Positions 10,607-56,514 of a DNA stretch of 64,000 nt are shown here, piece by piece; the first letter of the stretch is position 1; every line of letters starts with the position of its first letter. The notes under the pieces are model-generated. The model was not told the DNA's origin, ran no database searches, and saw nothing but the letters and a program-made list of their open reading frames with translations. Source of the DNA: a phage; the NCBI GenBank assembly GCA_028030915.1, contig GCA_028030915.1_4867.1; one strand, 5' to 3'. The translations under genes were made by a program, and so were the position numbers.

Positions 10607-11347
10607 TTACTTTAAGAGATGCAAGAAGCGTGCTGCCTGTTCTGTAAAGTGAAAATACTCGATGGTATCAGGTTCGTCCGAGTGAATGTCATCCGGGTCC
10701 AGCAGGTAGCCCGAGATATCATCCGTTAAAACCCAAGCGTCTCCCTGCAGGAAAATACCCATCGGTTTTTCTACCACGGGCATCACCAAGTCGGAATAAG
10801 AGTTACCTTCTGCAACCTTTACAATGTCTTCACACGGGTCAACAATATACAGGTTGCAGAGACTACGATCTTTAAGACTGCGATGAAACATCGCTCGATC
10901 GTACCAAATAACCTGAGAACAATTATCTTCGTCACCCGCCACATCGACCAACTCTGTCCAGAAACGATGTAAGAACCAGTTCAACGCACCGGTTATTAGC
11001 TCGTTCGGTTTCAGCATTCTAACGTGTTCGTCGTACAACTCTTCCATTGTCCAGATTCGACAATGCTCACGATCGATTGTCGGTAGCGGAGGTATTTGCG
11101 GCGGGACTTGTTTAGGCATCGGTTCATCACATCTTGCGTTGTAACGCGCAATTGTTTCGGTAACCAGCTCTGCCACAACATCACAAGCCGCTTCAAATCC
11201 CCACTTGTACAACACGTCGTAATCTTCCATGGGCGCAGCACCAAACTCACGGTTCGTTGCCATCCACGACATCCATCCGTATTGCTCCACACAGTTAATC
11301 AGACTTTGTGTGTGGAGCGTGAGCGATTCACTCACGACTCGCAACAT
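10607..11347 (-). CDS. hypothetical protein (start set at the internal Met adjacent to the upstream stop)
   Basis: The track ORF 10607..11407 would overlap the RNase H gene by about 60 nt; the Met at 11347 abuts the RNase H stop. Confidence 0.4.
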   Translation of the reverse strand: MLRVVSESLTLHTQSLINCVEQYGWMSWMATNREFGAAPMEDYDVLYKWGFEAACDVVAELVTETIARYNARCDEPMPKQVPPQIPPLPTIDREHCRIWTMEELYDEHVRMLKPNELITGALNWFLHRFWTELVDVAGDEDNCSQVIWYDRAMFHRSLKDRSLCNLYIVDPCEDIVKVAEGNSYSDLVMPVVEKPMGIFLQGDAWVLTDDISGYLLDPDDIHSDEPDTIEYFHFTEQAARFLHLLK

Positions 11348-11348
11348 G

Positions 11349-12863
11349 TTACACCTCTTCTTCTCGCAGTATGCGACGGTTTGCGTAATACGCACACCAC
11401 AACCCATGATACTCTTTACCGATATAGATTAAGAAGTAACGGATGTAGTATTTTTCAGGACGACACACCGCGATGTAATAACGGCCTTCGGGTTCTTTAA
11501 TACGGTTGATTTCCGTACGCGATGGAATATCGATACCACGCGTCAAAATAACCGAGACAGGTCGTTTACCCATCGGAAAGTCAATCTTTAACGTTATTGA
11601 CTTATCGACGCTACGGTAGTATTCCTTAACAGGCTTACCTTTGTCATCGAACAACAAGTCAGTAATATCATTTAAGACATAACCCTTTTCCTGATGCAGA
11701 ACATCTCTCAACGTTGTAGCGAGTTCGTCACGAATATCCAGCGCACGGTACGACAATAAGGGCGGGCGAAGCATTCTGGAGATGGCCAGGTCTTCAAAGA
11801 ACCAGACATTGGAATCTTCTCCACTGAAATGCATCTTGTCTGCCGGTAATCCATCACCTGCCACGTCAACGAACTTCTTACGTTTAACGAACTCATTGTT
11901 AACAACACCGATTGGATCATACTGCCGCATCTTCGGTGTATCTTTCCATGCCAGGGCGGCGTGGTTGTTTACAATCGTGTAGATGTTATCCCACGGTTGT
12001 TTAGTGAACATTACGGAAAAGTGTGCATCAGGAATCATTTTCCCAATAAACACCAAGTCGTCCTTGTTCTTTGCATGGTTGCCACCAAACATGTAATAGA
12101 AAGTTTCATCTTTCACTTTTACAGTAGGATGGTCCTCGTTCACCAACGGATAGCAATATTTAACCGTACAAATCGGCGGATATGCCGCAAGGTTCATCCC
12201 AGCGGCGATGGGCTCGGGTTCCGCGGATGCAGGCAACTCATCCTTCGACCAGTACGGCTGATATGGAACGCCGTCGTTGGTCGCTGTGATGGCTGAACCT
12301 TTTCTAGCCAATTCGTCCGCCCGGTCGTTACCGTAGTGGCCGGAGTGTCCTTTGATTTTGATAACCTTAACACCCCGTCCTTCTTTTTTCATCTGCTGTT
12401 TGATTTCCCAGATACGAACAATAAGTTCTTTGTTCGCCAGCGGAGTACCGTCAGCACGAACCCAACCACGTTTATGCCAGCCGTCTATCCACTCGTTAAA
12501 AGTGTTTACAACGTAACTGGCATCCACGTAGATGATATAGTTCTTCGCGCGGAAGGGCGCGTTCTCAAACAACGTGATGAAGGCGATTAACTCGCCCACA
12601 TCTGAGTAGAACTCTTTCGGAACGGGAATAACGGCGTCGACAAATTGAACGGTGTCCGGCAACTCCGGACAATTCACATCCTGCGGCACTTTTTTGTATC
12701 CAACAGTGGTAATCCGTTCTGAAACACCCGGATGGCTATAAGCCTGACTGTCTTCCAAATCTCCGTTGTTGAATAAATAACCATGAATACCAGCCCCCGA
12801 ACCTTTCGGGGACTCAGTATGACTACCATCGGTATAAATAACCGCTACGTCGACGTCTTTCAT
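11349..12863 (-). CDS. RNase HI (RnhA-type) N-terminal domain fused to an unknown ~300-aa C-terminal domain
   Basis: N-terminus IYTDGS, then YVDASYV...WHKRGW...IKGHSGHYGNDRADELAR, matching the E. coli RNase HI pattern (FTDGSC...STDSQYV...WKKRGW...VKGHAGHPENERCDELAR). Confidence 0.8.
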   Translation of the reverse strand: MKDVDVAVIYTDGSHTESPKGSGAGIHGYLFNNGDLEDSQAYSHPGVSERITTVGYKKVPQDVNCPELPDTVQFVDAVIPVPKEFYSDVGELIAFITLFENAPFRAKNYIIYVDASYVVNTFNEWIDGWHKRGWVRADGTPLANKELIVRIWEIKQQMKKEGRGVKVIKIKGHSGHYGNDRADELARKGSAITATNDGVPYQPYWSKDELPASAEPEPIAAGMNLAAYPPICTVKYCYPLVNEDHPTVKVKDETFYYMFGGNHAKNKDDLVFIGKMIPDAHFSVMFTKQPWDNIYTIVNNHAALAWKDTPKMRQYDPIGVVNNEFVKRKKFVDVAGDGLPADKMHFSGEDSNVWFFEDLAISRMLRPPLLSYRALDIRDELATTLRDVLHQEKGYVLNDITDLLFDDKGKPVKEYYRSVDKSITLKIDFPMGKRPVSVILTRGIDIPSRTEINRIKEPEGRYYIAVCRPEKYYIRYFLIYIGKEYHGLWCAYYANRRILREEEV

Positions 12864-13582
12864 TATTCTCCTCGCAACTGCGGTGGAATGTATTCACCTG
12901 TGCACATTTCGCGGTGGGCTTCTAACATGCGTTCGAAGCCGTACGTACGCGCGACCAGGGCCAAATGATAGATGCGTGCCGTAGAATACGCTTCCTTCGC
13001 AGCATCAAAGCTAGCGTTATGCTCGTACGCTTCTTTGCCACGGGTCCAATGGTGCGCTTCTGCGTGCCAGTTCGGTTCCAGGCCAAACGCATATGCAATA
13101 CGTTCTGCAGTCCGGTCAGAGTCCAATATAGAAAACTTGCGGTACTTGCCCGGCGGGATATCGCACTGCGCGAATGCGTTCATCAGAATTGGAGCATCGA
13201 AATCGGGACCGCGCATGGTGATAACCATTTTCACGTTGCCCAGATCATCCAACCATTTTTTGGCCGCCCACAGTGCTTCTGGCAGTGGAGTGGTCCCAGA
13301 AAACGCTTCAATACGTGCTTTCTCGCTCGGTGCGTATTCGGGGTCGCCTTTACCTTCCCAATAACCGACCGTTTGTGGATCGATGTAGAAGATTTCTTTT
13401 GCTTTTGCATCATTGGGGTCGATTTTGTGGTAACATGAACCGATCATTTTCATTGTCGGAACATCGAATGCCACGTTTGCCAACGTTAAGATGTAGGCAT
13501 CTGGACGTAAAGCCAGGGTCTCTAAGTCCGTCCCAACAACAACGGTGGGCGTTAAAACAGGCAGAATTTTAGGATATGTCAT
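12863..13582 (-). CDS. putative DEDD-family 3'-5' exonuclease (239 aa)
   Basis: VVVGTDLET (Exo I-like D-x-E) and HNASFDA (Exo II/III-like); start codon overlaps the RNase H gene boundary. Confidence 0.5.
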   Translation of the reverse strand: MTYPKILPVLTPTVVVGTDLETLALRPDAYILTLANVAFDVPTMKMIGSCYHKIDPNDAKAKEIFYIDPQTVGYWEGKGDPEYAPSEKARIEAFSGTTPLPEALWAAKKWLDDLGNVKMVITMRGPDFDAPILMNAFAQCDIPPGKYRKFSILDSDRTAERIAYAFGLEPNWHAEAHHWTRGKEAYEHNASFDAAKEAYSTARIYHLALVARTYGFERMLEAHREMCTGEYIPPQLRGE

Positions 13583-22726: not shown

Positions 22727-25237
22727 TTATGATGCATATTTGATTATTACCCCTTCGTTATACACCGGTGGAAGCGTTACACCTTCTGGTTCTACGACAC
22801 AGTAGGTGGCTTCGTTAAGTTTAGAATGAACTTCCGCTTCATGCGAAACGACCAGCAATTGAGAAAACTCTCCCGACAACGCCAACGATTTAATGAAGTT
22901 AACTAATCGGTTTTTGTGTTCTTCATCCATGCCTTCAGATGGTTCATCCAATAACAAAGGATAATTTTGTAAACCAAGTGCTTTATACGCCGTTAAACGA
23001 AACATCATGTTGAAAATGATACGCTGTGCTTTTGAACCTTTCTTCACGTCAGGTACCAGTTCTTCATGGTCTTTTAATCGTACCGGGAATGTGTAATCCA
23101 AATCCCCGTCGGTTAAATCGCACGGAATAACCTGCATCGGATATGCCCACACCATTTCGATATACCGATTCATTAAATCCATGATGCGTGTAATCGCAGC
23201 ATAAAAGTAACGACGCAATAATCCTTTTTCGGGGGAGACGGCATTGATAATCAATCTGGCATGGTGATGCTCTTTGAGCAGTTCAGCTTGTTCCTTTTCC
23301 AGTTCCGCTAAACGTGCAATAGCCCCTTCCATTTGACGAAACCGTTCACGAGCTGAAGTATACGCATCGAGCTTCGCTTCGCGTCGGTTTAACAACTCGC
23401 GAACCACGACGTTGTTAACGGAGATGTTCATTTCCGATACCAGATGTTCGTAGCCCTTTTGGAAACGTTCGATTGCTTCTTTGGTTTGTTGCAGTTGGAT
23501 GGTTTCGCGTTCCAGCTCATTGGCTTGTCTGCGGTATTCTATCAGTCGACGGTTAGCCCCGTCTAGTTGTGAACGGATATGTTCAATTTTCTGACTCAGC
23601 GCACCATCAACATTACCTACTGCGGCAACAGCCTCTTGCCATTCCCGTTCCGCTGTTGCAAGCTTCGCTGATTGACGCAGATACATCATGGCCGAATCTA
23701 ACTCTTCGGTAAAGGCACGTGCAATGGCACCATAACGATCCCGCGACGTGGTGAAGATATCCAACTCTTGCAGTTTACGGAAAAACAAACCGACAACGGG
23801 ATGGTTGGAATACGACATGACAATTTCGCGAATCGTACGTAAGCTACGGACGTCCTCTTCAATCTCTTTGCGGTCACGCAAAAGACTATCCATTTCGTCT
23901 TTCAGCTGTTTTTTCCAACCTTCATTATCGTTGATGGCCTTTTCAGTTTCAGGTAACGACTTACGAATCCCAGGACGGAAACGGTGGTTACACTGTGGAC
24001 AATCAACTTCTGCAGTTTCTAAGAAGTGTTGACGGTCGTGGTATAAACCGTGTAGCACATTCTCACAACGTTGCAACTTTTCAGATAGACCCGCAGAGGT
24101 TAAATCCATACCCTGTAAACGCTTCTCTAACGCTCCCAGGCGCTCTGTTGTCTTTAACTGGTCCAGATGCATGGACAACGGTAAATTCCAGTTACAGGCG
24201 TCGTTTAACGCGTTCTGAATGCTATCCACGTCGATGCGGGTACCTTCAAACAGAGCCGGGAACATCCAGTTCTGTTGGAACGTTGCCAGTTCCTGTTTTA
24301 AGCTGTCGATTGTTTGTTTTAGACCGGTATGGTTGCGCATCAGATATGTTTGACGCGACTCCTCATCCAGTAGCTGTGACAACTCTTTATTGTACATGTT
24401 GCATTCAGTTTCAGCAGAGGCAGCTTGCTCACGCCAGGCAACCACACGACTTTGAAACTCGTTAATCAGTTCGTCAGAAGGCAGAACGCCATAACGTTCC
24501 ATAATGAGTTTTACAGCCGGTTGCAACGAAGCAATGCGTTTCCGGATACTGTCAACCGAAACAGCGTTATCTAAACCGGGCCTTGCTTCAATTGTGCGGT
24601 TTAATTCTTGAAGCTCAGCATCGAGTTCTTTCAAACGAACTTCTAAACGTGCACGATCTTCTTCATCGTCAACGACGCGCATTTTTGCTTCGCCGATTTT
24701 TCGTCCGGTGTGTTCGATGGCCCCGCTTAAACTGGAAGCGAGTTTACGCAAACGTCGATAGCAGCCAACAACGTATGTCAGATCAGATTCTGACATTAAC
24801 GTAAACCATTTGCGACGAACTTCGGTAGTGGCGTCAGTTAATAAGGTCTCGCCATTAATTAACTCTTTGATTTCTTTGGTGATTCCGGTTAACTGTTCCA
24901 CCATGGAGTTGTAAACTTTGGCGTTTACCGAGTCCACAATGGGGACGCCTTTGGTGATATTGAAAATACTACAAGACAAAGAAGACCCACGTCGCAGGAC
25001 TTCAAATTTAAGACGGTCGTCCCCGACTAACGCGTAGTTAGTGTAAGAACCGCCTTCGCGGAATTCAGATTTTGCTGGAGCTAAGGGGAGAAAAACAGAC
25101 AGGAGGCTTGTTTTACCGCAACCATTGCCACCGAGGATGATGGTAACGGTTGACTTAAGGGTGAAATCAAACGTTTCGATTTCGTGTAACCCCATGCCGG
25201 TAAATCCTTTCAAAATGATACGTTCGACCTTGAGCAT
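22727..25237 (-). CDS. SbcC/Rad50-like recombination ATPase (836 aa)
   Basis: Walker A GGNGCGKTS; long coiled-coil middle with CPQC zinc hook; Walker B/D-loop LLLDEPSEGMDEE; H-loop VVSHEAE. Confidence 0.85.
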   Translation of the reverse strand: MLKVERIILKGFTGMGLHEIETFDFTLKSTVTIILGGNGCGKTSLLSVFLPLAPAKSEFREGGSYTNYALVGDDRLKFEVLRRGSSLSCSIFNITKGVPIVDSVNAKVYNSMVEQLTGITKEIKELINGETLLTDATTEVRRKWFTLMSESDLTYVVGCYRRLRKLASSLSGAIEHTGRKIGEAKMRVVDDEEDRARLEVRLKELDAELQELNRTIEARPGLDNAVSVDSIRKRIASLQPAVKLIMERYGVLPSDELINEFQSRVVAWREQAASAETECNMYNKELSQLLDEESRQTYLMRNHTGLKQTIDSLKQELATFQQNWMFPALFEGTRIDVDSIQNALNDACNWNLPLSMHLDQLKTTERLGALEKRLQGMDLTSAGLSEKLQRCENVLHGLYHDRQHFLETAEVDCPQCNHRFRPGIRKSLPETEKAINDNEGWKKQLKDEMDSLLRDRKEIEEDVRSLRTIREIVMSYSNHPVVGLFFRKLQELDIFTTSRDRYGAIARAFTEELDSAMMYLRQSAKLATAEREWQEAVAAVGNVDGALSQKIEHIRSQLDGANRRLIEYRRQANELERETIQLQQTKEAIERFQKGYEHLVSEMNISVNNVVVRELLNRREAKLDAYTSARERFRQMEGAIARLAELEKEQAELLKEHHHARLIINAVSPEKGLLRRYFYAAITRIMDLMNRYIEMVWAYPMQVIPCDLTDGDLDYTFPVRLKDHEELVPDVKKGSKAQRIIFNMMFRLTAYKALGLQNYPLLLDEPSEGMDEEHKNRLVNFIKSLALSGEFSQLLVVSHEAEVHSKLNEATYCVVEPEGVTLPPVYNEGVIIKYAS

Positions 25238-25290
25238 GTTTGCCTTCTAATGAGAAAGTATTAGTCGTTCATATCCAAAAGGCCATGCGT

Positions 25291-25322
25291 AAAAAAGAAG
25301 AAATGGAACCCCGAAGGGTTCC
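25291..25322 (-). terminator. intrinsic terminator (GGAACCC-CGAA-GGGTTCC)
   Basis: Hairpin with GNRA-like loop, A-run upstream on the plus strand; downstream of the 25334..25960 gene. Confidence 0.45.
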
Positions 25323-25333
25323 AGAGAGGAGAG

Positions 25334-25960
25334 TTACTGCGGAATAAACTTACGGTGTCCGAGCGATTCCCAAAAACTGTCGGTGCGCTCTTTGGTTAAT
25401 TCATACCACGCACGCCCGGCATCAGAATCGACAACCTTTAACGTTTCAGTAAGCAGGAATTTGAACAGTTCAGCGCTACGACCGGGTGCTACACCGTCGA
25501 GATATATCGGAATTAAATAACCGGTTTTGATTTCTTCGTACGGTTGCGATTGGTGTTGACCAACAACCCAGGCATCAGCAGCGCTACCGACCAAAGTGGT
25601 GTTTACAGTTAACTCATCAGAAATCCAGTTAACTGTATCAGCCATTATTGAATCGCCATTGACGTAGAAGAAAACTAAACGTTTAGGTTGCTCCACCGAA
25701 CCAGCCAAATCTAATGCAGTAGTTCCGGTGAAGATCGTATTATTGGGATTACGTTCTGCAATAGGTAGAGCAAACCACGCTTCGAGCTGCCCCCAGCTAC
25801 GCGGCAGTGCTTCTTTAAACCACTTCACCAATCGCGGGTATTCCAGAAACCCTTCTACCTCTTCTTCCATCAGATTGATACGCAGTTTGGTATCCTGACG
25901 ATTCGCTTTCTGACACGTCACCATGTCGTCGATGAAACGAATCAGGGTAATCTCGTTCAT
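25334..25960 (-). CDS. hypothetical protein (208 aa)
   Basis: ORF in track. Confidence 0.45.
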   Translation of the reverse strand: MNEITLIRFIDDMVTCQKANRQDTKLRINLMEEEVEGFLEYPRLVKWFKEALPRSWGQLEAWFALPIAERNPNNTIFTGTTALDLAGSVEQPKRLVFFYVNGDSIMADTVNWISDELTVNTTLVGSAADAWVVGQHQSQPYEEIKTGYLIPIYLDGVAPGRSAELFKFLLTETLKVVDSDAGRAWYELTKERTDSFWESLGHRKFIPQ

Positions 25961-49916: not shown

Positions 49917-50309
49917 ATGGCGATATCTATTAAAGACGTCAGAAACCGCGTCCAGATAGTCGAAGCTAACATGGCGACAGGCCCCCGCATCGAGGCGCAA
50001 GTGGCCTCTAAAGCCCATAATGCGGCAGACCGATTTGGGGGTTGGACGAAAGCACAGCTAGATTGCGGCGGGACATGTTCTTGGACATGCTCTAACGGTT
50101 GCTCGCACGGCTGTTCGAGCTGTTCAGGAAGCTGTTCTGCTTCTTGTATCGGTAGCTGTTCTTCGACGTGTGGCGGTAACTGTTCTGGTTGCTCTGGTTG
50201 TTCTGGTGGTTGCAGTAGTAGCTGTACCGGTAACTGCACAGGTGGTTGCGGTGGCTCATGTTCTTCCAGTTGTTCCGGGGCCTGCTCCGGCGGCTGTTCA
50301 GGTCGCTAA
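49917..50309 (+). CDS. Cys-rich repeat protein A (130 aa): ~49-aa leader-like N-terminus plus a CxxxC repeat tail with about 21 Cys; candidate RiPP precursor
   Basis: ATG with AAGGA RBS; N-terminus MAISIKDVRNRV is paralogous to the next two ORFs; tail DCGGTCSWTCSNGCSHGCSSCSGSC...CSGACSGGCSGR. Confidence 0.6.
   Translation: MAISIKDVRNRVQIVEANMATGPRIEAQVASKAHNAADRFGGWTKAQLDCGGTCSWTCSNGCSHGCSSCSGSCSASCIGSCSSTCGGNCSGCSGCSGGCSSSCTGNCTGGCGGSCSSSCSGACSGGCSGR
50064..50306 (+). repeat. in-frame period-12-nt coding repeat (Cys-Ser/Gly-x-x) within protein A
   Basis: Reiterated TGC/TGT-containing units (e.g. tgttctggttgctctggttgttctggtggttgc); both alternative frames are also open, as expected for a low-complexity repeat. 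Confidence 0.6.
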
Positions 50310-50319
50310 GGGGGATTAA

Positions 50320-50724
50320 ATGGCAATTGGATTAAAAGAACTGAATAACCGATTAAACACGATCGATGCAAACGCTCTAAAGAATACCACGAATGTGCAA
50401 AACTACATTCGCAATAAAGCTACGAATAACGCTGACTTGTTCGCAGGTCAAGGTCGTTCGCACTACGACTGTGGTGGTACGTGTTCTTTTAGCTGCTCAA
50501 GTTGCTCTGGCGGCTGCACAGGATCTGCGACAGGTGGTTGTGGGTCGACTTGTTCGGCAAACTGTGTATCAGGCTGTAGCAGCAGCTGCACGGGCTGTAG
50601 CTCTTCGTGCTCTGGTGGTTGTAGCGGCACGTGCACAGGCAGCTGTTCTGGGGGTTGTGGTAAATCCTGCTCCGCAAACTGCTCAGGTGCGTGCTCTGGT
50701 GGTTGTTCAGGTCCTAACTCCTAA
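50320..50724 (+). CDS. Cys-rich repeat protein B (134 aa): leader-like N-terminus plus a CxxxC repeat tail with about 20 Cys; candidate RiPP precursor
   Basis: ATG with GGGGGA RBS; MAIGLKELNNRL leader paralogous to A; tail begins YDCGGTCSFSC and ends CSGACSGGCSGPNS. Confidence 0.6.
   Translation: MAIGLKELNNRLNTIDANALKNTTNVQNYIRNKATNNADLFAGQGRSHYDCGGTCSFSCSSCSGGCTGSATGGCGSTCSANCVSGCSSSCTGCSSSCSGGCSGTCTGSCSGGCGKSCSANCSGACSGGCSGPNS
50470..50721 (+). repeat. in-frame period-12-nt coding repeat (Cys-Ser/Gly-x-x) within protein B
   Basis: Same repeat style as in A; alternative frames open. Confidence 0.6.
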
Positions 50725-50739
50725 CTGACGGAGGCTTAT

Positions 50740-50946
50740 GTGATCAGTCTCAAGACTATTCGAAACCGTCTCGTTACGGCAGAAGGTTACATTACAACCG
50801 CACAGGCAAACAACTATATCGCTAACCAGGGCACCGTGTCGACCACAAATAACCTGGCTGGCTTACCGCTTTCTCACTATAACTGTAATGGTGGGTGTAG
50901 CTGGTCCTGCAGCGGAAGCTGTAGCCGTGGAGCGGGGAATCGATAA
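50740..50946 (+). CDS. Cys-rich short paralog C (68 aa, GTG start): leader-like N-terminus plus a short CNGGCSWSCSGSCS core
   Basis: GGAGG RBS 5 nt before GTG; MISLKTIRNRL leader matches A and B; core starts YNCNGGCSW, like the start of the A and B cores. Confidence 0.5.
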   Translation: MISLKTIRNRLVTAEGYITTAQANNYIANQGTVSTTNNLAGLPLSHYNCNGGCSWSCSGSCSRGAGNR

Positions 50947-50968
50947 CAGAAAACGTTCGGAGTATTAA

Positions 50969-51856
50969 ATGAAAAACGATTTGCATCTTGCGTATAAAAC
51001 CACATTCAACCACCCGCTGCATCTATCTTCCCCAGATTCAGTGCGTGCACACCTTGCTGACAAAGTCAGACTGATTGCACAGATTCCTGGTGAGTGGCCA
51101 AAGGTTCGTGGTCGCTTCTTGACCGACAAGAAGAACTACACCGTAGAAAATACGTTTAAGATCCGTGATATGGTTGCAGAGGCCATCGTTATCTTTAACG
51201 GCGATGGTAACTCTCGTGGCGTGTTAGTCGACGGTAAGTATTTCTTCAGTGAAGGGATTTTGAACAACAGCGTCGATTTAGAACTGATGTTTACACCGTT
51301 TGACGAACTTGAAGCAAAACCGATGGCGCGCCGTTGGTGGAGTCCGGACTATCTGGGCTCGTTCCCTTACTACTTTGTACTGGTACCTGCCGATACGGAA
51401 ACGTATTTCGACACCGAACCATACATCGATATCGAGGGGTATAAAGAACTCGGCATCACCCGTTTAGCGGACATGATGGCGTATAGCTATAAGTTCGTGT
51501 GGGATAAAAAGCGTTCTGTCTGGTATGCACTGACTGACGATTTCGAAATCACCAAACGTATTCGTAAACCGTGGATGCAACATCTGGTTCAAACCCGATA
51601 TGGGGATTATCCGGCGACGGAAGCGGATTTGAGTAAGCTGGTAAGTTTCCTCTTAACGAAGGTGGATTTAACGAAAGAAGAAGCAGAAGCTGTTTCTGAG
51701 ATTCGTGGTCGTTCGGTAACGTTGGCCGATTTGAAACGCCTGAACGAAAGACACGCCGACCTGAACAAAATTTTAGCTGCCTATCACGACCCGATGTTAC
51801 TGGTGCCCGGCGCTAATGTAGACGAAGATCCTTTATTCGCCATTGATTATATTTAA
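50969..51856 (+). CDS. hypothetical protein (295 aa) within the Cys-peptide/radical-SAM cluster
   Basis: GGAG RBS; no recognised motif; lies between the precursors and the rSAM genes. Confidence 0.5.
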   Translation: MKNDLHLAYKTTFNHPLHLSSPDSVRAHLADKVRLIAQIPGEWPKVRGRFLTDKKNYTVENTFKIRDMVAEAIVIFNGDGNSRGVLVDGKYFFSEGILNNSVDLELMFTPFDELEAKPMARRWWSPDYLGSFPYYFVLVPADTETYFDTEPYIDIEGYKELGITRLADMMAYSYKFVWDKKRSVWYALTDDFEITKRIRKPWMQHLVQTRYGDYPATEADLSKLVSFLLTKVDLTKEEAEAVSEIRGRSVTLADLKRLNERHADLNKILAAYHDPMLLVPGANVDEDPLFAIDYI

Positions 51857-51878
51857 AAATATACTGGAGCAACCTGCA

Positions 51879-52793
51879 ATGACAGATCAAGTAGAATCCA
51901 GGATCTCGTCTGAACTGTACGACAAACCGTCAATTCTGTCGGTTGTCGCAACTTCTAAGTGTAACTTAGACTGTAGCTTCTGTGGAGGGGCTTATTACAT
52001 GGATAGAGAAGATACTTCTCGTGAGTTTCAACGTGAAGAGATTCTCTCGATTTTAGAGAAGAATCCGGATATCGGTGAGATTCATTGGACGGGCGGTGAG
52101 CCGCTGTTAGCGCAGCGCAAGATTGAAGACTTCGTGAACGAGTTGAAGGAGTCTCATCCGAACCTCCGTCATCACATGTACACCAACGGTTTAAAGATGC
52201 GTAAATCACATCTGCCGTTGCTGAAACAGTTCGACCTTATCTTTGTGTCCATTGACGGCTACAAGAAGTCGGAACGTCCGTTTATGAACTTTGTAAACGG
52301 TGGTAATCATGAAGCGCTGGAAGTGCTGTACGAGCTGGACAACTATTACACCTGGGGTGTGATGACGCGTGACCAGTTAGGTGATAAACGCTGGTACGAA
52401 GATTTCATCGAGCTGCACCGAGCAATCTATCATTACCGTCCAGGTGGGATGTCGTTGCTGTTTGATGCGATGATGCCGAAACCGTTATCGCCAGACCACG
52501 TCATGAACTTCATGTACGGGTATTGGAAAATACTCGACAATATCGAACGCCTTAACATGCAGAACGATTCTGAATGTGGGCTTGCGATCAGTAAAATGTT
52601 CGATACCGAGTGCAACACGTGCAGTGAAGTTCTGTGGCTTAACGCCGACGGTACGCAGGAGCAAATTCAGAACGCCCCAGAGATATTGGAAGTCGGCTGT
52701 AATCGCCTGGCGCGTTCTATCGGCGTTGATGCGTATAACTACATCAACCGTGTAATTTCTGCTAAGCGTAAACGGGCGGCGAACAATGAGTAA
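51879..52793 (+). CDS. radical SAM enzyme (about 305 aa) with short Cys-containing C-terminal extension
   Basis: CNLDCSFC (C-x3-C-x2-C) near the N-terminus, WTGGEPLL, YTNG, SIDG; C-terminal ECGLAISKMFDTECNTCSEV...GC; GGAG RBS before the ATG at 51879 (the track ORF starts at an upstream TTG). Confidence 0.7.
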   Translation: MTDQVESRISSELYDKPSILSVVATSKCNLDCSFCGGAYYMDREDTSREFQREEILSILEKNPDIGEIHWTGGEPLLAQRKIEDFVNELKESHPNLRHHMYTNGLKMRKSHLPLLKQFDLIFVSIDGYKKSERPFMNFVNGGNHEALEVLYELDNYYTWGVMTRDQLGDKRWYEDFIELHRAIYHYRPGGMSLLFDAMMPKPLSPDHVMNFMYGYWKILDNIERLNMQNDSECGLAISKMFDTECNTCSEVLWLNADGTQEQIQNAPEILEVGCNRLARSIGVDAYNYINRVISAKRKRAANNE

Positions 52794-54114
52794 CAGCGAA
52801 CAGCAAATCCAGTACACACCACGCACATATCAGGTCGTGACTAACTTGTCATGTAACCTGGACTGCGAATACTGCTACGAGCGTAAATACCCACGCAACA
52901 ACAAAGTAGCTGACGTGATTGATTTTATCCACGCTTGCTTCGAGCGTGATAAAGATATCCCGAACGTTGAAGTCATCATCGATATCATCGGTGGTGAGCC
53001 GTTCATGCAGCCTAAACTTCTTTTGGCGGCCTTTGAAACCGCAGAGAAGTTATGTGCAGAACACAATCGCCCGTATATGTTCAGTATCTCCACGAACGGT
53101 ACGCTTCTGGACCGTCCGCTGAACAAAGAAATTATCGAGCGCTGGAAAGACAAACTGTCTATTGGGGTCTCCATCGATGGTTTACCTGAAATCCATGACA
53201 AATATCGTATCTTTACCACGACGCGTGAAGGGTCGTACGAAGCTGCGGTACGCGGTTACAATTACCTGAAGAGTGTTGGCATCGCTGAGCTGGGCGTAAA
53301 GGCGACGTTTACGATCGATACATTGCCGCACTATGCCGCCAGCATGAAATCGTTAATTGACATGTCCGGCGGTGGTACCATTTCTGGTAACGTAACGTAC
53401 GAAGATATCCTGCCGCGCCATATGGCGTTGGATATCGCGAACCAGATGATGGACGTGATGGACTACTGGATTGAGAAGGGTCTGCACACCAACCCGCGTA
53501 ACACGATTACGCACATCATCCCGGATGGCCTGAACTTTATGGCAACTTGGGACCCGGATTGGCGTGACAAACTCTTACATGACGACTCTGTTCGTCTCGA
53601 CCCAGAACGCCTGAAACCGTACTGCGGTACGTTGACGCACATGACCTGTCTCGGCTTTGATCGCAAGATTTACGGTTGTAACCGTTTCATGTCCACGGTA
53701 ACTTCCCGTTCTGCTGTAGCAGAACTGGTCGGTCGTGAGTTTGTGAGCCTGGACGGTGGTAAGCTGTTAGAAGAGATTCAAACGCAGTACACCAACTACC
53801 CAGAAACCTGTTTAGGGTGTCCGATGAAACACAGCTGCGGTAGCTGCGCAGCAGCATCGTACGAAAACGGTGAAGGTACACTGGAAGACCGTAAAGCGTA
53901 TCACGCCGAGCGTCGTCAGTGTGGTTGGACTACTGCGAAGCTGATGGCGGCGGAATATTGGTATCAGAAAACTGGTACGACCCGCGCATCAGATTTGCAC
54001 GATAAATCCATGTGCTATTGTTCACGTTGTGTACGCCAACGTGCTGAAGCAGAAAAATTACAAAACGGAGCCCAGAATGAAGTCAATACTGATTCACAAT
54101 TTTACGAAGCGTAA
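52786..54114 (+). CDS. radical SAM enzyme with SPASM-like Cys-rich C-terminal domain (442 aa)
   Basis: CNLDCEYC (C-x3-C-x2-C), GGEPF, STNG, SIDG; C-terminal cysteine cluster CGTLTHMTCLGFDRKIYGCNRF...CLGCPMKHSCGSCAAASY; start overlaps the upstream rSAM stop by 8 nt. Confidence 0.75.
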   Translation: MSNSEQQIQYTPRTYQVVTNLSCNLDCEYCYERKYPRNNKVADVIDFIHACFERDKDIPNVEVIIDIIGGEPFMQPKLLLAAFETAEKLCAEHNRPYMFSISTNGTLLDRPLNKEIIERWKDKLSIGVSIDGLPEIHDKYRIFTTTREGSYEAAVRGYNYLKSVGIAELGVKATFTIDTLPHYAASMKSLIDMSGGGTISGNVTYEDILPRHMALDIANQMMDVMDYWIEKGLHTNPRNTITHIIPDGLNFMATWDPDWRDKLLHDDSVRLDPERLKPYCGTLTHMTCLGFDRKIYGCNRFMSTVTSRSAVAELVGREFVSLDGGKLLEEIQTQYTNYPETCLGCPMKHSCGSCAAASYENGEGTLEDRKAYHAERRQCGWTTAKLMAAEYWYQKTGTTRASDLHDKSMCYCSRCVRQRAEAEKLQNGAQNEVNTDSQFYEA

Positions 54115-54643
54115 ACTGCACTTGGTCGATCGCTTCCTGCGCAAAAGCAAGCTGTACAATGTGCACGCAATTGTGGCAGGGGAAGACTTCACTGATGAAA
54201 TCCAAAGCCTGTTGATTAAATACGGGCTGAATGTGATGATCCCGGTCTACTGCGTTGAGAAAGGACACGAGTCTGTCGCGGAAATCGAAAAGCGCAACCC
54301 TGGCTTTGAGAAGCGACTGCTTGCATACCCACGCCACAAAATCGAACTGCTACGACACTCTATTGATGAAGCCAGTCCTGAAAGTTTAGTGGCATTGGGC
54401 TTGTCTTTCCCGCGGATGCGTATTCGTAACTTACGCTCCAATAACCCGGTTGACGCTTATTACACAGAGCGTCAAATCTTCGAAGAACACCTGCTCCCGC
54501 AGTTGGAAGAAGAAGAGCAACACAACATTTCTCTGTTGTGGGCCGGTAACCTCGATCAGGACTTCCAGATGCTGGACTTCGGTTTGTTGTTAGAACTTGG
54601 CCTGATTGAGGAGGACGAATGTCTGTTACTGACAAAAGCTTAA
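54077..54643 (+). CDS. hypothetical protein (188 aa from the internal Met with GGAG RBS)
   Basis: The track ORF starts at 54029 inside the rSAM gene; the Met at 54077 has an RBS but still overlaps the rSAM 3' end by 38 nt. Confidence 0.4.
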   Translation: MKSILIHNFTKRKLHLVDRFLRKSKLYNVHAIVAGEDFTDEIQSLLIKYGLNVMIPVYCVEKGHESVAEIEKRNPGFEKRLLAYPRHKIELLRHSIDEASPESLVALGLSFPRMRIRNLRSNNPVDAYYTERQIFEEHLLPQLEEEEQHNISLLWAGNLDQDFQMLDFGLLLELGLIEEDECLLLTKA

Positions 54644-55290
54644 CGAACGAAGAGATCCGCGCCCGTTATTTCCAGCGTGATTTGCCGATTGATCGTCACG
54701 GTAATTTCATGGAACGAATCGGTGCGCAGGATCAGGGCCGTACCGGATTTTGTGCATTACTCCATTACCATCTCATCGAAGGGATGTCTGATAAAGAAGC
54801 CCTGGCACGCATGAAGCTGTATGAGATGTCGGAGATTGAAGCTAACTTCACATTGAAACGCACGAAAGAGTTTATTGCTAATGTGCTGGAGATTGACCTC
54901 GACGAAATTCGCGGGAATCTGAAATCTACCGCACGTTACATTTACGAAGACGTGCAGAAGATGCTGTTGGAACTCGACCACCGCTACGAAGATGAGCGCC
55001 ATGGTTATATCGAGTTTGAAGGTAGTCACTTTCAAGCCGATGAATCGTCGCGTACCATCCTCGGTCAATACATTCAGGCAGATACCGCACCAGAATACTG
55101 GCTCGATACGCTGAATACTAAGCACAGTCCGTTTACAGTAGCCCAATGTAAAGCGTTGCTGGCCGCTATTGTTGCACGTGACCAAGTGTTGCACTCAGCA
55201 ATGGCAGATAACAAACGCCAAATCCGTGAGTTAGCTGAAAAGCGCGATTACACTGGATTAAAAACATTGTCCGAGTCACTCGGCATGTAA
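54619..55290 (+). CDS. hypothetical protein (223 aa), last gene of the cluster
   Basis: ORF overlapping the previous gene by 25 nt; followed by a strong terminator. Confidence 0.5.
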   Translation: MSVTDKSLTNEEIRARYFQRDLPIDRHGNFMERIGAQDQGRTGFCALLHYHLIEGMSDKEALARMKLYEMSEIEANFTLKRTKEFIANVLEIDLDEIRGNLKSTARYIYEDVQKMLLELDHRYEDERHGYIEFEGSHFQADESSRTILGQYIQADTAPEYWLDTLNTKHSPFTVAQCKALLAAIVARDQVLHSAMADNKRQIRELAEKRDYTGLKTLSESLGM

Positions 55291-55302
55291 GCAAAGAAAA
55301 TA

Positions 55303-55348
55303 AAGGCCCTACCTCCCCGAAGGGAGGTAGGTACCTTTTATTTATTTC
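55303..55348. terminator. bidirectional intrinsic terminator (CCCTACCTCCC-CGAA-GGGAGGTAGG, then T-run)
   Basis: Inverted repeat between convergent genes 54619..55290 (+) and 55372..55899 (-). Confidence 0.6.
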
Positions 55349-55371
55349 TTAGAAACTACTAAGTTGTTTTG

Positions 55372-55899
55372 TTAAACGAATCCGTCCAGTTCACCGTTGG
55401 TGGTGCTCAGGTCAGTTTTAACGATTGGCTGCGTTACAGTATAAACTGCAAGGCTGGCAGGTTGGTATTTAATGTGGCCTTCTTTCACCATAACAGTGAT
55501 GATTTTCTCACCACTGTCGCCGTCCTCGCGTGAAATGGTGAGTTCAGACAATGCAAACGCATCTTCCGTTTTACCGGCGGCAATTAGATCTGCGTTGACA
55601 AAAGCAAGCACTTCTTCATCGGTATCCCATTCTGCCTGGTCAGCGGTAACTGCTTTCGCACCGATGATGTTCAATGAATCGAGGCGGGTGTAATGCAGCT
55701 CTTTCTCGCCAGTAAAGTTAGCGGATTCCGCGGTGGCAGTGATGGTGAGTTTGGAGTTGCGAGTGTCTCCAGAATCTGCTGGTGAATAGTCAGCAACAGC
55801 GCCGAATGTAACGTCAGCAGTAGTTAACGGACTAGACAGTCCGCTGTTTGCAGCATTAAACAGCGCGACGAGTTGGTCTTTTGCAGAGATGACTGCCAT
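55372..55899 (-). CDS. hypothetical protein (175 aa), Thr/Ala-rich, possibly virion-associated
   Basis: ORF in track. Confidence 0.45.
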   Translation of the reverse strand: MAVISAKDQLVALFNAANSGLSSPLTTADVTFGAVADYSPADSGDTRNSKLTITATAESANFTGEKELHYTRLDSLNIIGAKAVTADQAEWDTDEEVLAFVNADLIAAGKTEDAFALSELTISREDGDSGEKIITVMVKEGHIKYQPASLAVYTVTQPIVKTDLSTTNGELDGFV

Positions 55900-56022
55900 G
55901 GTTGTTTCCTTATAGTAGGTTTGTGGTGCATACTAAATCGTTCTAAAAACAACATAGTGGGCTTAATATGACAGTAAAGTTGGCTGTTAAACGAGAAAGT
56001 TTTTACCACTGAAAGGTACTCT

Positions 56023-56514
56023 ATGAAACGTCTATTTATCGTATTCGCGATTATAAACCTGTTGGCCGGTTGTGTTCAGTCGCCAAGCAACATAGGACAA
56101 TTTAGCGCCACACCAGTAAAGAATCACGACTTGGTGATTTATACATGCACAGGGACGCAGGAGAAGTTTGTAGACTACCGTCCGGTACTGGACAACCTAC
56201 AAATGATGCCGCGGTCAGTAACAGTAATGGATGTGGGTGCAAACTGGGTAGCAGCGTGGGACGGTGGCAAACTAGAGTCACCGATGATGTTTAAAGATAC
56301 AATTGGCAAAATCGACGGGAATGTTAATACCACCACAGGTGAGCGTTATTACCGTATTAATAAAACCGTAAACGATAGCCCCACTTACTCTTTTTCGGAT
56401 GTGAACCCGTATACCGGCGAAGGTAAAGGGATGACATTCTTTCGCTGCAGCAGCGGGTTTATCGGTGAAGTTCCTACTCCGATTACGATTGTTCCGTTAG
56501 AAGAAAATAAATAA
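56023..56514 (+). CDS. putative lipoprotein (163 aa), lipobox LLAGC
   Basis: N-terminal MKRLFIVFAIINLLAGC; own terminator downstream. Confidence 0.55.
   Translation: MKRLFIVFAIINLLAGCVQSPSNIGQFSATPVKNHDLVIYTCTGTQEKFVDYRPVLDNLQMMPRSVTVMDVGANWVAAWDGGKLESPMMFKDTIGKIDGNVNTTTGERYYRINKTVNDSPTYSFSDVNPYTGEGKGMTFFRCSSGFIGEVPTPITIVPLEENK

Follow-up and report, generated by a model that had tools for sequence, protein, structure and literature searches.

The stretch of DNA analyzed here, referred to below as the window, comprises 64,000 nucleotides of a phage contig (NCBI GenBank assembly GCA_028030915.1, contig GCA_028030915.1_4867.1). On its minus strand, at positions 11349..12863, lies a complete gene of the RNase H-clamp (Rhc) type, an ATG-to-TAA open reading frame (ORF) of 504 amino acids plus stop. 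We conclude that this gene is very probably the Rhc of the SPN3US lineage and that its product works as the family does, i.e., as a loader-independent, clamp-derived polymerase subunit with a tethered ribonuclease (RNase) HI. The analysis provided the architecture of the protein, its intact and conserved active site, a predicted clamp-like fold, the tether between the domains, orthology, synteny and genome context. The clamp hypothesis, which we reached from a structure search, is already published, and the family is known and recently characterized. The window offers no new principle; it indicates that the SPN3US lineage has a typical, intact copy of Rhc.

Proteins of this type have been studied in two other jumbo phages. 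The phiKZ protein, phiKZ155, belongs to the core genome and behaves in vitro as a bona fide RNase H; it is found in the phage nucleus, and both genome amplification and nucleus maturation need it (Gerovac et al., Nature 2025, PMC12571901). In import studies gp155 is Nlp2, a cargo of Imp1/PicA-dependent import, and phiKZ155/Nlp2 has been under study since 2024-2025. Two preprints extend this picture. According to the first (Basu et al., bioRxiv, 1 Oct 2026, PMC13648687), the phiKZ core polymerase is a 1:1 complex of DNAP-N and DNAP-C, and Rhc binds DNAP-C. One Rhc subunit and the polymerase thumb together hold the exiting duplex, primer extension is strongly boosted, and the RNase H domain, being flexibly linked, was not resolved in the structure. 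The second (Rani et al., bioRxiv, 2 Oct 2026, PMC13648698) gave the Goslar protein the name Rhc and reports that it is indispensable for both replication and maturation of the nucleus, with a separable role in late transcription that probably consists in R-loop resolution. A phage group without a classical clamp and primase, yet always with RNase H1, had been described before (Iyer et al. 2021, PMC7824862). Rhc partly answers the puzzle raised by these phages, namely how more than 200 kb are replicated processively by a divergent split polymerase with no recognizable clamp, loader or primase (PMC7824862): part of the answer is that a clamp-derived domain, joined to an RNase H in one protein, belongs to the polymerase itself.

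In the window, the ORF list and a reading of the sequence gave a single uninterrupted ORF of 504 amino acids. At the nucleotide level, the gene shares 98.5-99.9% identity with its counterparts in SPN3US, SPLA5c, the SPFM phages, EC001 and other members of Seoulvirus, and a nucleotide-level search found 34 phage records that carry it at a coverage of at least 80%. Judged by its sequence, the window belongs to an SPN3US-like Salmonella jumbo phage, a nucleus-forming chimallivirus; SPN3US itself is among the phages listed as experimentally nucleus-forming (PMC13282480), and a genetic system based on amber mutants is reported for it (PMC5105663). The gene has already been deposited in SPN3US as SPN3US_0207 with the label "putative ribonuclease H". 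The profile phrog_3265 ("ribonuclease", 496 profile positions) matches the 504-residue protein end to end (E 3.7e-189), which shows that the two-domain architecture is a property of the family and no local accident. Database labels such as "ribonuclease H" and "ribonuclease" cover only about 40% of the Rhc protein.

The N-terminal part (12276..12863, minus strand; residues 1-196) is a type-1 RNase H (RNase HI) domain. Residues 89-190 match Pfam RNase_H (PF00075) with an E-value of 7.7e-22 and 78.4 bits, where the cutoff is 25.8. In a search of PDB sequences, residues 91-202 aligned with RNase HI of E. coli and with RNase H1 of humans (E 1e-11 to 1e-13). In the alignment, the catalytic residues D12, E91, D114, H173 and D183 correspond to E. 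coli D10, E48, D70, H124 and D134, and all five are invariant across the SPN3US-type protein, phiKZ gp155 and Goslar gp246 when these three are aligned. An AlphaFold model of the full protein, for which a 42-sequence alignment served as input (mean pLDDT 88.5), has the canonical order of strands and helices in the RNase H part. The domain combines the RNase H fold with the DEDD carboxylates and the conserved His that characterize RNase HI (PF00075).

A preliminary description of this DNA, made from the letters alone, had claimed a full RNase HI signature with extra residues inserted between its first two motif blocks, and both claims hold. The insertion, of about 41 residues (12648..12770, minus strand; residues 32-72), is placed by the secondary structure of the model between beta-strands 2 (residues 20-31) and 3 (residues 73-81), and it is well ordered (pLDDT 89-95). 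It is specific to the family: the alignments with phiKZ gp155 and Goslar gp246 also contain it, whereas E. coli RNase HI and human RNase H1 lack it, their alignments to the query starting at about residue 91. Compared with the bacterial and eukaryotic RNase HI/H1 enzymes (RnhA, RNASEH1), Rhc adds this insertion of about 41 residues and a C-terminal extension of about 300 residues; it has no counterpart of the N-terminal hybrid-binding domain of eukaryotic RNase H1. With 504 residues, the insertion and a second domain, it also differs from the stand-alone RnhA equivalog of about 150 residues, and its score against NF001236 is 70.4 bits where the cutoff is 160.

The RNase H domain is followed by an acidic, Pro-rich linker (12198..12275, minus strand; residues 197-222, DGVPYQPYWSKDELPASAEPEPIAAG) with a pI of 4.05, whose length and sequence vary among homologs. 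In the AlphaFold model, pLDDT drops to 51-76 across the linker and below 50 at residues 210-215, and pTM is 0.56 for the whole protein versus 0.88 for the C-terminal domain alone. The RNase H and C-terminal domains of the window protein are thus predicted to be flexibly linked, a feature that marks the Rhc family.

The C-terminal domain of about 280 residues (11352..12197, minus strand) was not recognizable by sequence searches. Its region of about 300 residues gave no Pfam match even at E-values up to 10, a 21-sequence profile of the domain found only a chance-level match among all PDB sequences (1ydm, YqgN, E 0.66), and the NCBIfam scan returned sub-threshold RNase H models only. Modeled alone from a 21-sequence alignment, the domain gave a confident fold, with a pLDDT of 88.8 beside the pTM given above. 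A structure search with this model retrieved subunits of the 9-1-1 type, i.e., HUS1 (score 6.8, with 187 residues aligned), DDC1 (5.9), RAD9A (5.7) and RAD1 (5.1). It also retrieved other ring clamps, namely the African swine fever virus (ASFV) sliding clamp (5.9), gp45 (5.0), bacterial beta clamps (4.7) and archaeal PCNA (4.5), as well as the viral processivity factors UL42 of herpes simplex virus (4.6), UL44 of cytomegalovirus (4.5) and PF-8 of Kaposi's sarcoma-associated herpesvirus (4.2). The model points to a sliding-clamp-like fold for this domain, in which K275, R449 and K-R461 are conserved. The preliminary description had called the region large and uncharacterized; its size and the lack of a Pfam match stand, and the second adjective is outdated now that the fold appears clamp-like and the family is known as Rhc.

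Two other assignments of the region were rejected. An accessory region of the hybrid-binding-domain type, a classical kind of RNase H accessory domain, does not fit, as the extension is C-terminal, its fold differs and no Pfam match was found; a known accessory domain, which the preliminary description had named as a danger to its claim, is thus not what the region is. Kinship with PIWI/Argonaute proteins was likewise dismissed: about 105-130 residues aligned, which fits the RNase H fold that the N-terminal part has in common with them, and the matches were gone when the C-terminal domain alone was searched. A further parallel is offered by the herpesvirus factors UL42, UL44 and PF-8, which are clamp-fold, loader-free processivity factors. 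They have no detectable sequence similarity to Rhc, and in contrast to them, Rhc carries a fused nuclease and has a split, divergent B-family polymerase as its partner.

As a separate observation, two BFVD entries, I1VX43 (233 residues) and G4KKB4 (247 residues), matched the model of the C-terminal domain with Foldseek E-values of 6e-10 and 1.6e-4. These unnamed, clamp-sized viral proteins score above every annotated clamp in the BFVD library, and they might connect ordinary phage clamps with the Rhc domain as intermediate forms.

Homologs of the complete protein were found in both characterized systems. BLASTP matched phiKZ gp155 (Nlp2) over residues 5-494 (E 7e-38) and Goslar gp246 ("putative ribonuclease HI", 508 residues) over residues 76-501 (E 4e-37). 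Both resemble the window protein in having the same two domains, the insertion in RNase HI, the flexible linker and the clamp-derived C-terminal domain. With tblastn, the full protein was matched in distant jumbo phages, i.e., phiKZ-like Pseudomonas, Erwinia RAY-like, Ralstonia and Xanthomonas phages, with 90-99% coverage, 22-26% identity and E-values down to 1e-30. The C-terminal 288 residues alone found 219 phage records by tblastn; among the matches listed, all are jumbo phages of 197-322 kb, including phiKZ (PHIKZ155). An exhaustive search with the profile of the C-terminal domain yielded 794 clusters at E-values up to 0.001 among 1.84 billion representatives, and nearly all of the matches listed are proteins of 430-585 residues with the domain at the C-terminus. 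Judging from these matches, fusion of RNase H to the clamp-like domain is the rule across the family. A word-indexed homolog search reached 49 proteins, all from the close clade; tblastn and the exhaustive profile search were needed for the distant family.

Two metagenomic proteins, P0188 (280 residues) and P0107 (291 residues), consist of the clamp-derived domain at nearly full length without RNase H, and each starts with Met near the domain boundary. They may be stand-alone or split C-terminal domains of Rhc, or else the result of mis-called starts.

Gene order also links the three phages. The window, phiKZ and Goslar share the order RNAP-beta piece, UvsX/RecA-like protein, Rhc, divergent virion structural protein, phiKZ161-like protein and SbcC-like protein; in phiKZ, the UvsX/RecA-like protein is phiKZ152, the divergently transcribed virion structural protein is phiKZ157 and the SbcC-like protein is phiKZ165. 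This synteny spans positions 3483-25237 of the window and 150-172 kb of phiKZ, its anchors having 21-36% protein identity, and the small genes between the anchors are lineage-specific. By homology and position, the window gene is best described as the SPN3US-lineage ortholog of Rhc (phiKZ gp155/Nlp2, Goslar gp246), a core protein of Chimalliviridae.

The window itself has no polymerase genes, and the replication genes were therefore checked in the SPLA5c genome, which is 99.9% identical. Two genes of SPLA5c are annotated as "DNA polymerase". One product, of 708 residues (23771-25897 of SPLA5c), matches PF20286 divDNApol (E 9e-271) and is taken as DNAP-C; the other, of 594 residues (54382-56166 of SPLA5c), is taken as DNAP-N. 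SPLA5c also encodes a divergent DnaB (PF20307 divDnaB) and pieces of a multisubunit RNA polymerase. No clamp, clamp loader or primase was found in the annotation of the whole SPLA5c genome. Seen through this relative, the phage has the setting expected of an Rhc phage, i.e., it forms a nucleus, its B-family polymerase is split and divergent, and it has a DnaB-like helicase but no identified clamp or primase. The repertoire matches the chimallivirus replication set as described in the phiKZ preprint (PMC13648687).

In the most likely mechanism, Rhc would be made in the cytoplasm and then imported into the phage nucleus. A single copy would dock through its C-terminal, clamp-derived domain onto DNAP-C of the split B-family polymerase (DNAP-N plus DNAP-C), and together with the polymerase thumb it would grip the duplex leaving the active site. 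In this way it would serve as a built-in processivity factor without a ring clamp or loader. RNase HI, held on the flexible acidic linker, would cut the RNA of RNA:DNA hybrids near the polymerase or the fork, such as primers and probably also R-loops. By orthology with the phiKZ and Goslar proteins, the window protein would bind the polymerase and stimulate synthesis, be active as an RNase H, be imported into the nucleus and reside there, and be essential. The preliminary description had suggested that the fusion couples hybrid removal to another activity during replication. The predicted clamp-like fold supports this suggestion, as does the role of Rhc as a polymerase subunit in phiKZ and Goslar.

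Several points weigh against this assignment. The identity to the characterized orthologs, phiKZ gp155 and Goslar gp246, is just about 26%, and we found no paper on SPN3US gp207 or one that measures any homolog of the SPN3US lineage. That the Rhc of the preprints and phiKZ gp155 are one protein is our inference from matching architecture and phenotype; the abstracts do not say so. In addition, the reports on catalysis conflict: in phiKZ, the D102N mutant of phiKZ155 complemented the knockdown (PMC12571901), whereas the Goslar study describes RNase H catalysis as required (PMC13648698).

The phiKZ result is the basis of the strongest alternative, which is that the protein is mainly a nuclease-independent licensing or "sensor" factor for nucleus maturation, acting, for example, at the PicA/Imp1 import site. 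The RNase H fold would then recognize nucleic acid without cutting, and the C-terminal domain would be a scaffold for protein-protein contacts and no processivity module. Besides the complementation by the catalytically dead D102N protein, this idea draws on the punctum that GFP-phiKZ155 forms at the nuclear periphery, like that of PicA, and the authors of that study suggested a sensory role (PMC12571901). The family as a whole speaks differently. Among 179 full-length members, D12 is retained in 172, E91 in 177, D114 in 176, H173 in 174 and D183 in 175, and conservation of 96-99% at each position argues that catalysis is strongly selected family-wide. This near-universal conservation favors a catalytic role at the level of the family, and the survey bears directly on the dispute over the need for catalysis. 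The resemblance of the modeled C-terminal domain to DNA clamps also counts against a sensor, as do the cryo-EM and primer extension data that, as reported in the phiKZ preprint, put Rhc on the polymerase and on DNA (PMC13648687), and the catalytic requirement reported for Goslar. We consider such a sensor improbable.

Still less probable is that the C-terminal domain forms a canonical closed-ring trimer around DNA, like PCNA or gp45, with three tethered RNase H domains. The fold does resemble ring-clamp protomers (9-1-1 subunits, the ASFV clamp, gp45 and PCNA), which align with the domain over 143-187 residues, and its length of about 280 residues roughly equals that of one protomer. However, closed rings of the PCNA, gp45 or beta type are loaded by AAA+ proteins; no loader is annotated in SPLA5c, and the phiKZ cryo-EM structures show a single Rhc subunit (PMC13648687).

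That the long ORF is an artefact, in which a sequencing error or frameshift joined an RNase H to an unrelated gene, has next to no probability and was rejected: SPFM6, 9, 10 and 12 do show the region in many pieces with short "hypothetical protein" calls, but the comparative data already refute an accident of this kind, since the architecture is uninterrupted in dozens of phages (23-100% identity) that were sequenced independently, hundreds of metagenomic clusters share it, the PHROG profile covers the full length, and the possible stand-alone proteins P0188 and P0107 are rare exceptions. The frameshift that the preliminary description had named as a danger to its claim is thus at odds with the end-to-end match of phrog_3265, the 34 phage records and the hundreds of clusters.

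Among the records LR535903-LR535913 (SPFM5, 6, 7, 8, 9, 10, 12, 14 and 15), several align with the region of Rhc and the exonuclease gene described below only as 4-26 short pieces, and the annotation there consists of several "hypothetical proteins" (P0035-P0037 and P0047). The dense indels and the many pieces across the region point to the assembly or sequencing quality of the SPFM records and not to a real disruption of the genes.

Directly upstream of Rhc lies a gene for a DEDDh-type 3'-5' exonuclease (12863..13582, minus strand; 239 residues, SPN3US_0206). It matches PF16473 (Rv2179c-like 3'-5' exoribonuclease) with 35.5 bits against a cutoff of 27, and phrog_255 ("exonuclease") with an E-value of 4e-53; by eye, its motifs DxE ... 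D ... H-x4-D can be read as GTDLET, GPDFDA and HNASFD. The overlap of its stop with the Rhc start codon, seen in the preliminary description, is a TAATG junction, in which the exonuclease TAA (12865-12863) and the Rhc ATG (12863-12861) share one base. A comparison of coordinates found the exonuclease directly upstream of Rhc only in the branch of SPN3US, the Erwinia phages Asesino, Huxley and phiEaH2, CR5 and Vibrio pVp-JHP1101. The exonuclease occurs in 81 phage records, versus 219 with the C-terminal domain of Rhc, and tblastn gave no match to it in any phiKZ-like record, nor in the phiKZ and Goslar loci compared. Unlike phiKZ and Goslar, the SPN3US/Erwinia/CR5 clade couples Rhc translationally to a DEDDh exonuclease. 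This clade-specific coupling is the only detail that the known Rhc family leaves unexplained.

Conceivably, the exonuclease works with the Rhc-polymerase machine as an extra partner specific to this clade, making a four-component variant of the replisome, although we regard this as rather unlikely. One possible role would be to trim RNA fragments or 3' ends that RNase H leaves. If such a partnership existed, a replisome variant containing an exonuclease would have escaped the work on phiKZ and Goslar.

Downstream of Rhc, a gene in the same orientation (10607..11347, minus strand; 246 residues, SPN3US_0208, phrog_9472) is annotated in SPN3US and SPLA5c, and its ATG at 11347 begins 1 nt past the Rhc stop. 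A longer, mechanically called ORF (10607..11407, minus strand; 266 residues) reaches 59 nt into the 3' end of Rhc. Since the match to phrog_9472 begins at residue 21 of this ORF and both SPN3US and SPLA5c have the ATG at 11347, the 59-nt overlap stems from the longest-ORF rule. Rfam and tRNA scans across the window were empty.

Finally, a distant part of the window (49917-54114, plus strand) coincides with a stretch without annotation in SPLA5c. It starts with three small tandem ORFs on the plus strand, at 49917-50309 (130 residues), 50320-50724 (134 residues) and 50740-50946 (68 residues), which have similar N-terminal leaders and C-terminal halves with Cys at every fourth residue (CSGSCSASCIGSCSSTCGGNC...). 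They are followed by an ORF of 295 residues with no assigned function and by two radical SAM proteins. The best NCBIfam match of the radical SAM protein of 442 residues is TIGR04115, "radical SAM peptide maturase, CXXX-repeat target family", with an E-value of 3e-36, under the curated cutoff, and two of the small peptides come near the 20-bit cutoff of the CXXX repeat model TIGR04114, scoring 19.6 and 17.1 bits. From these matches, the stretch looks like a peptide-modification cluster of the RiPP type in a jumbo phage.

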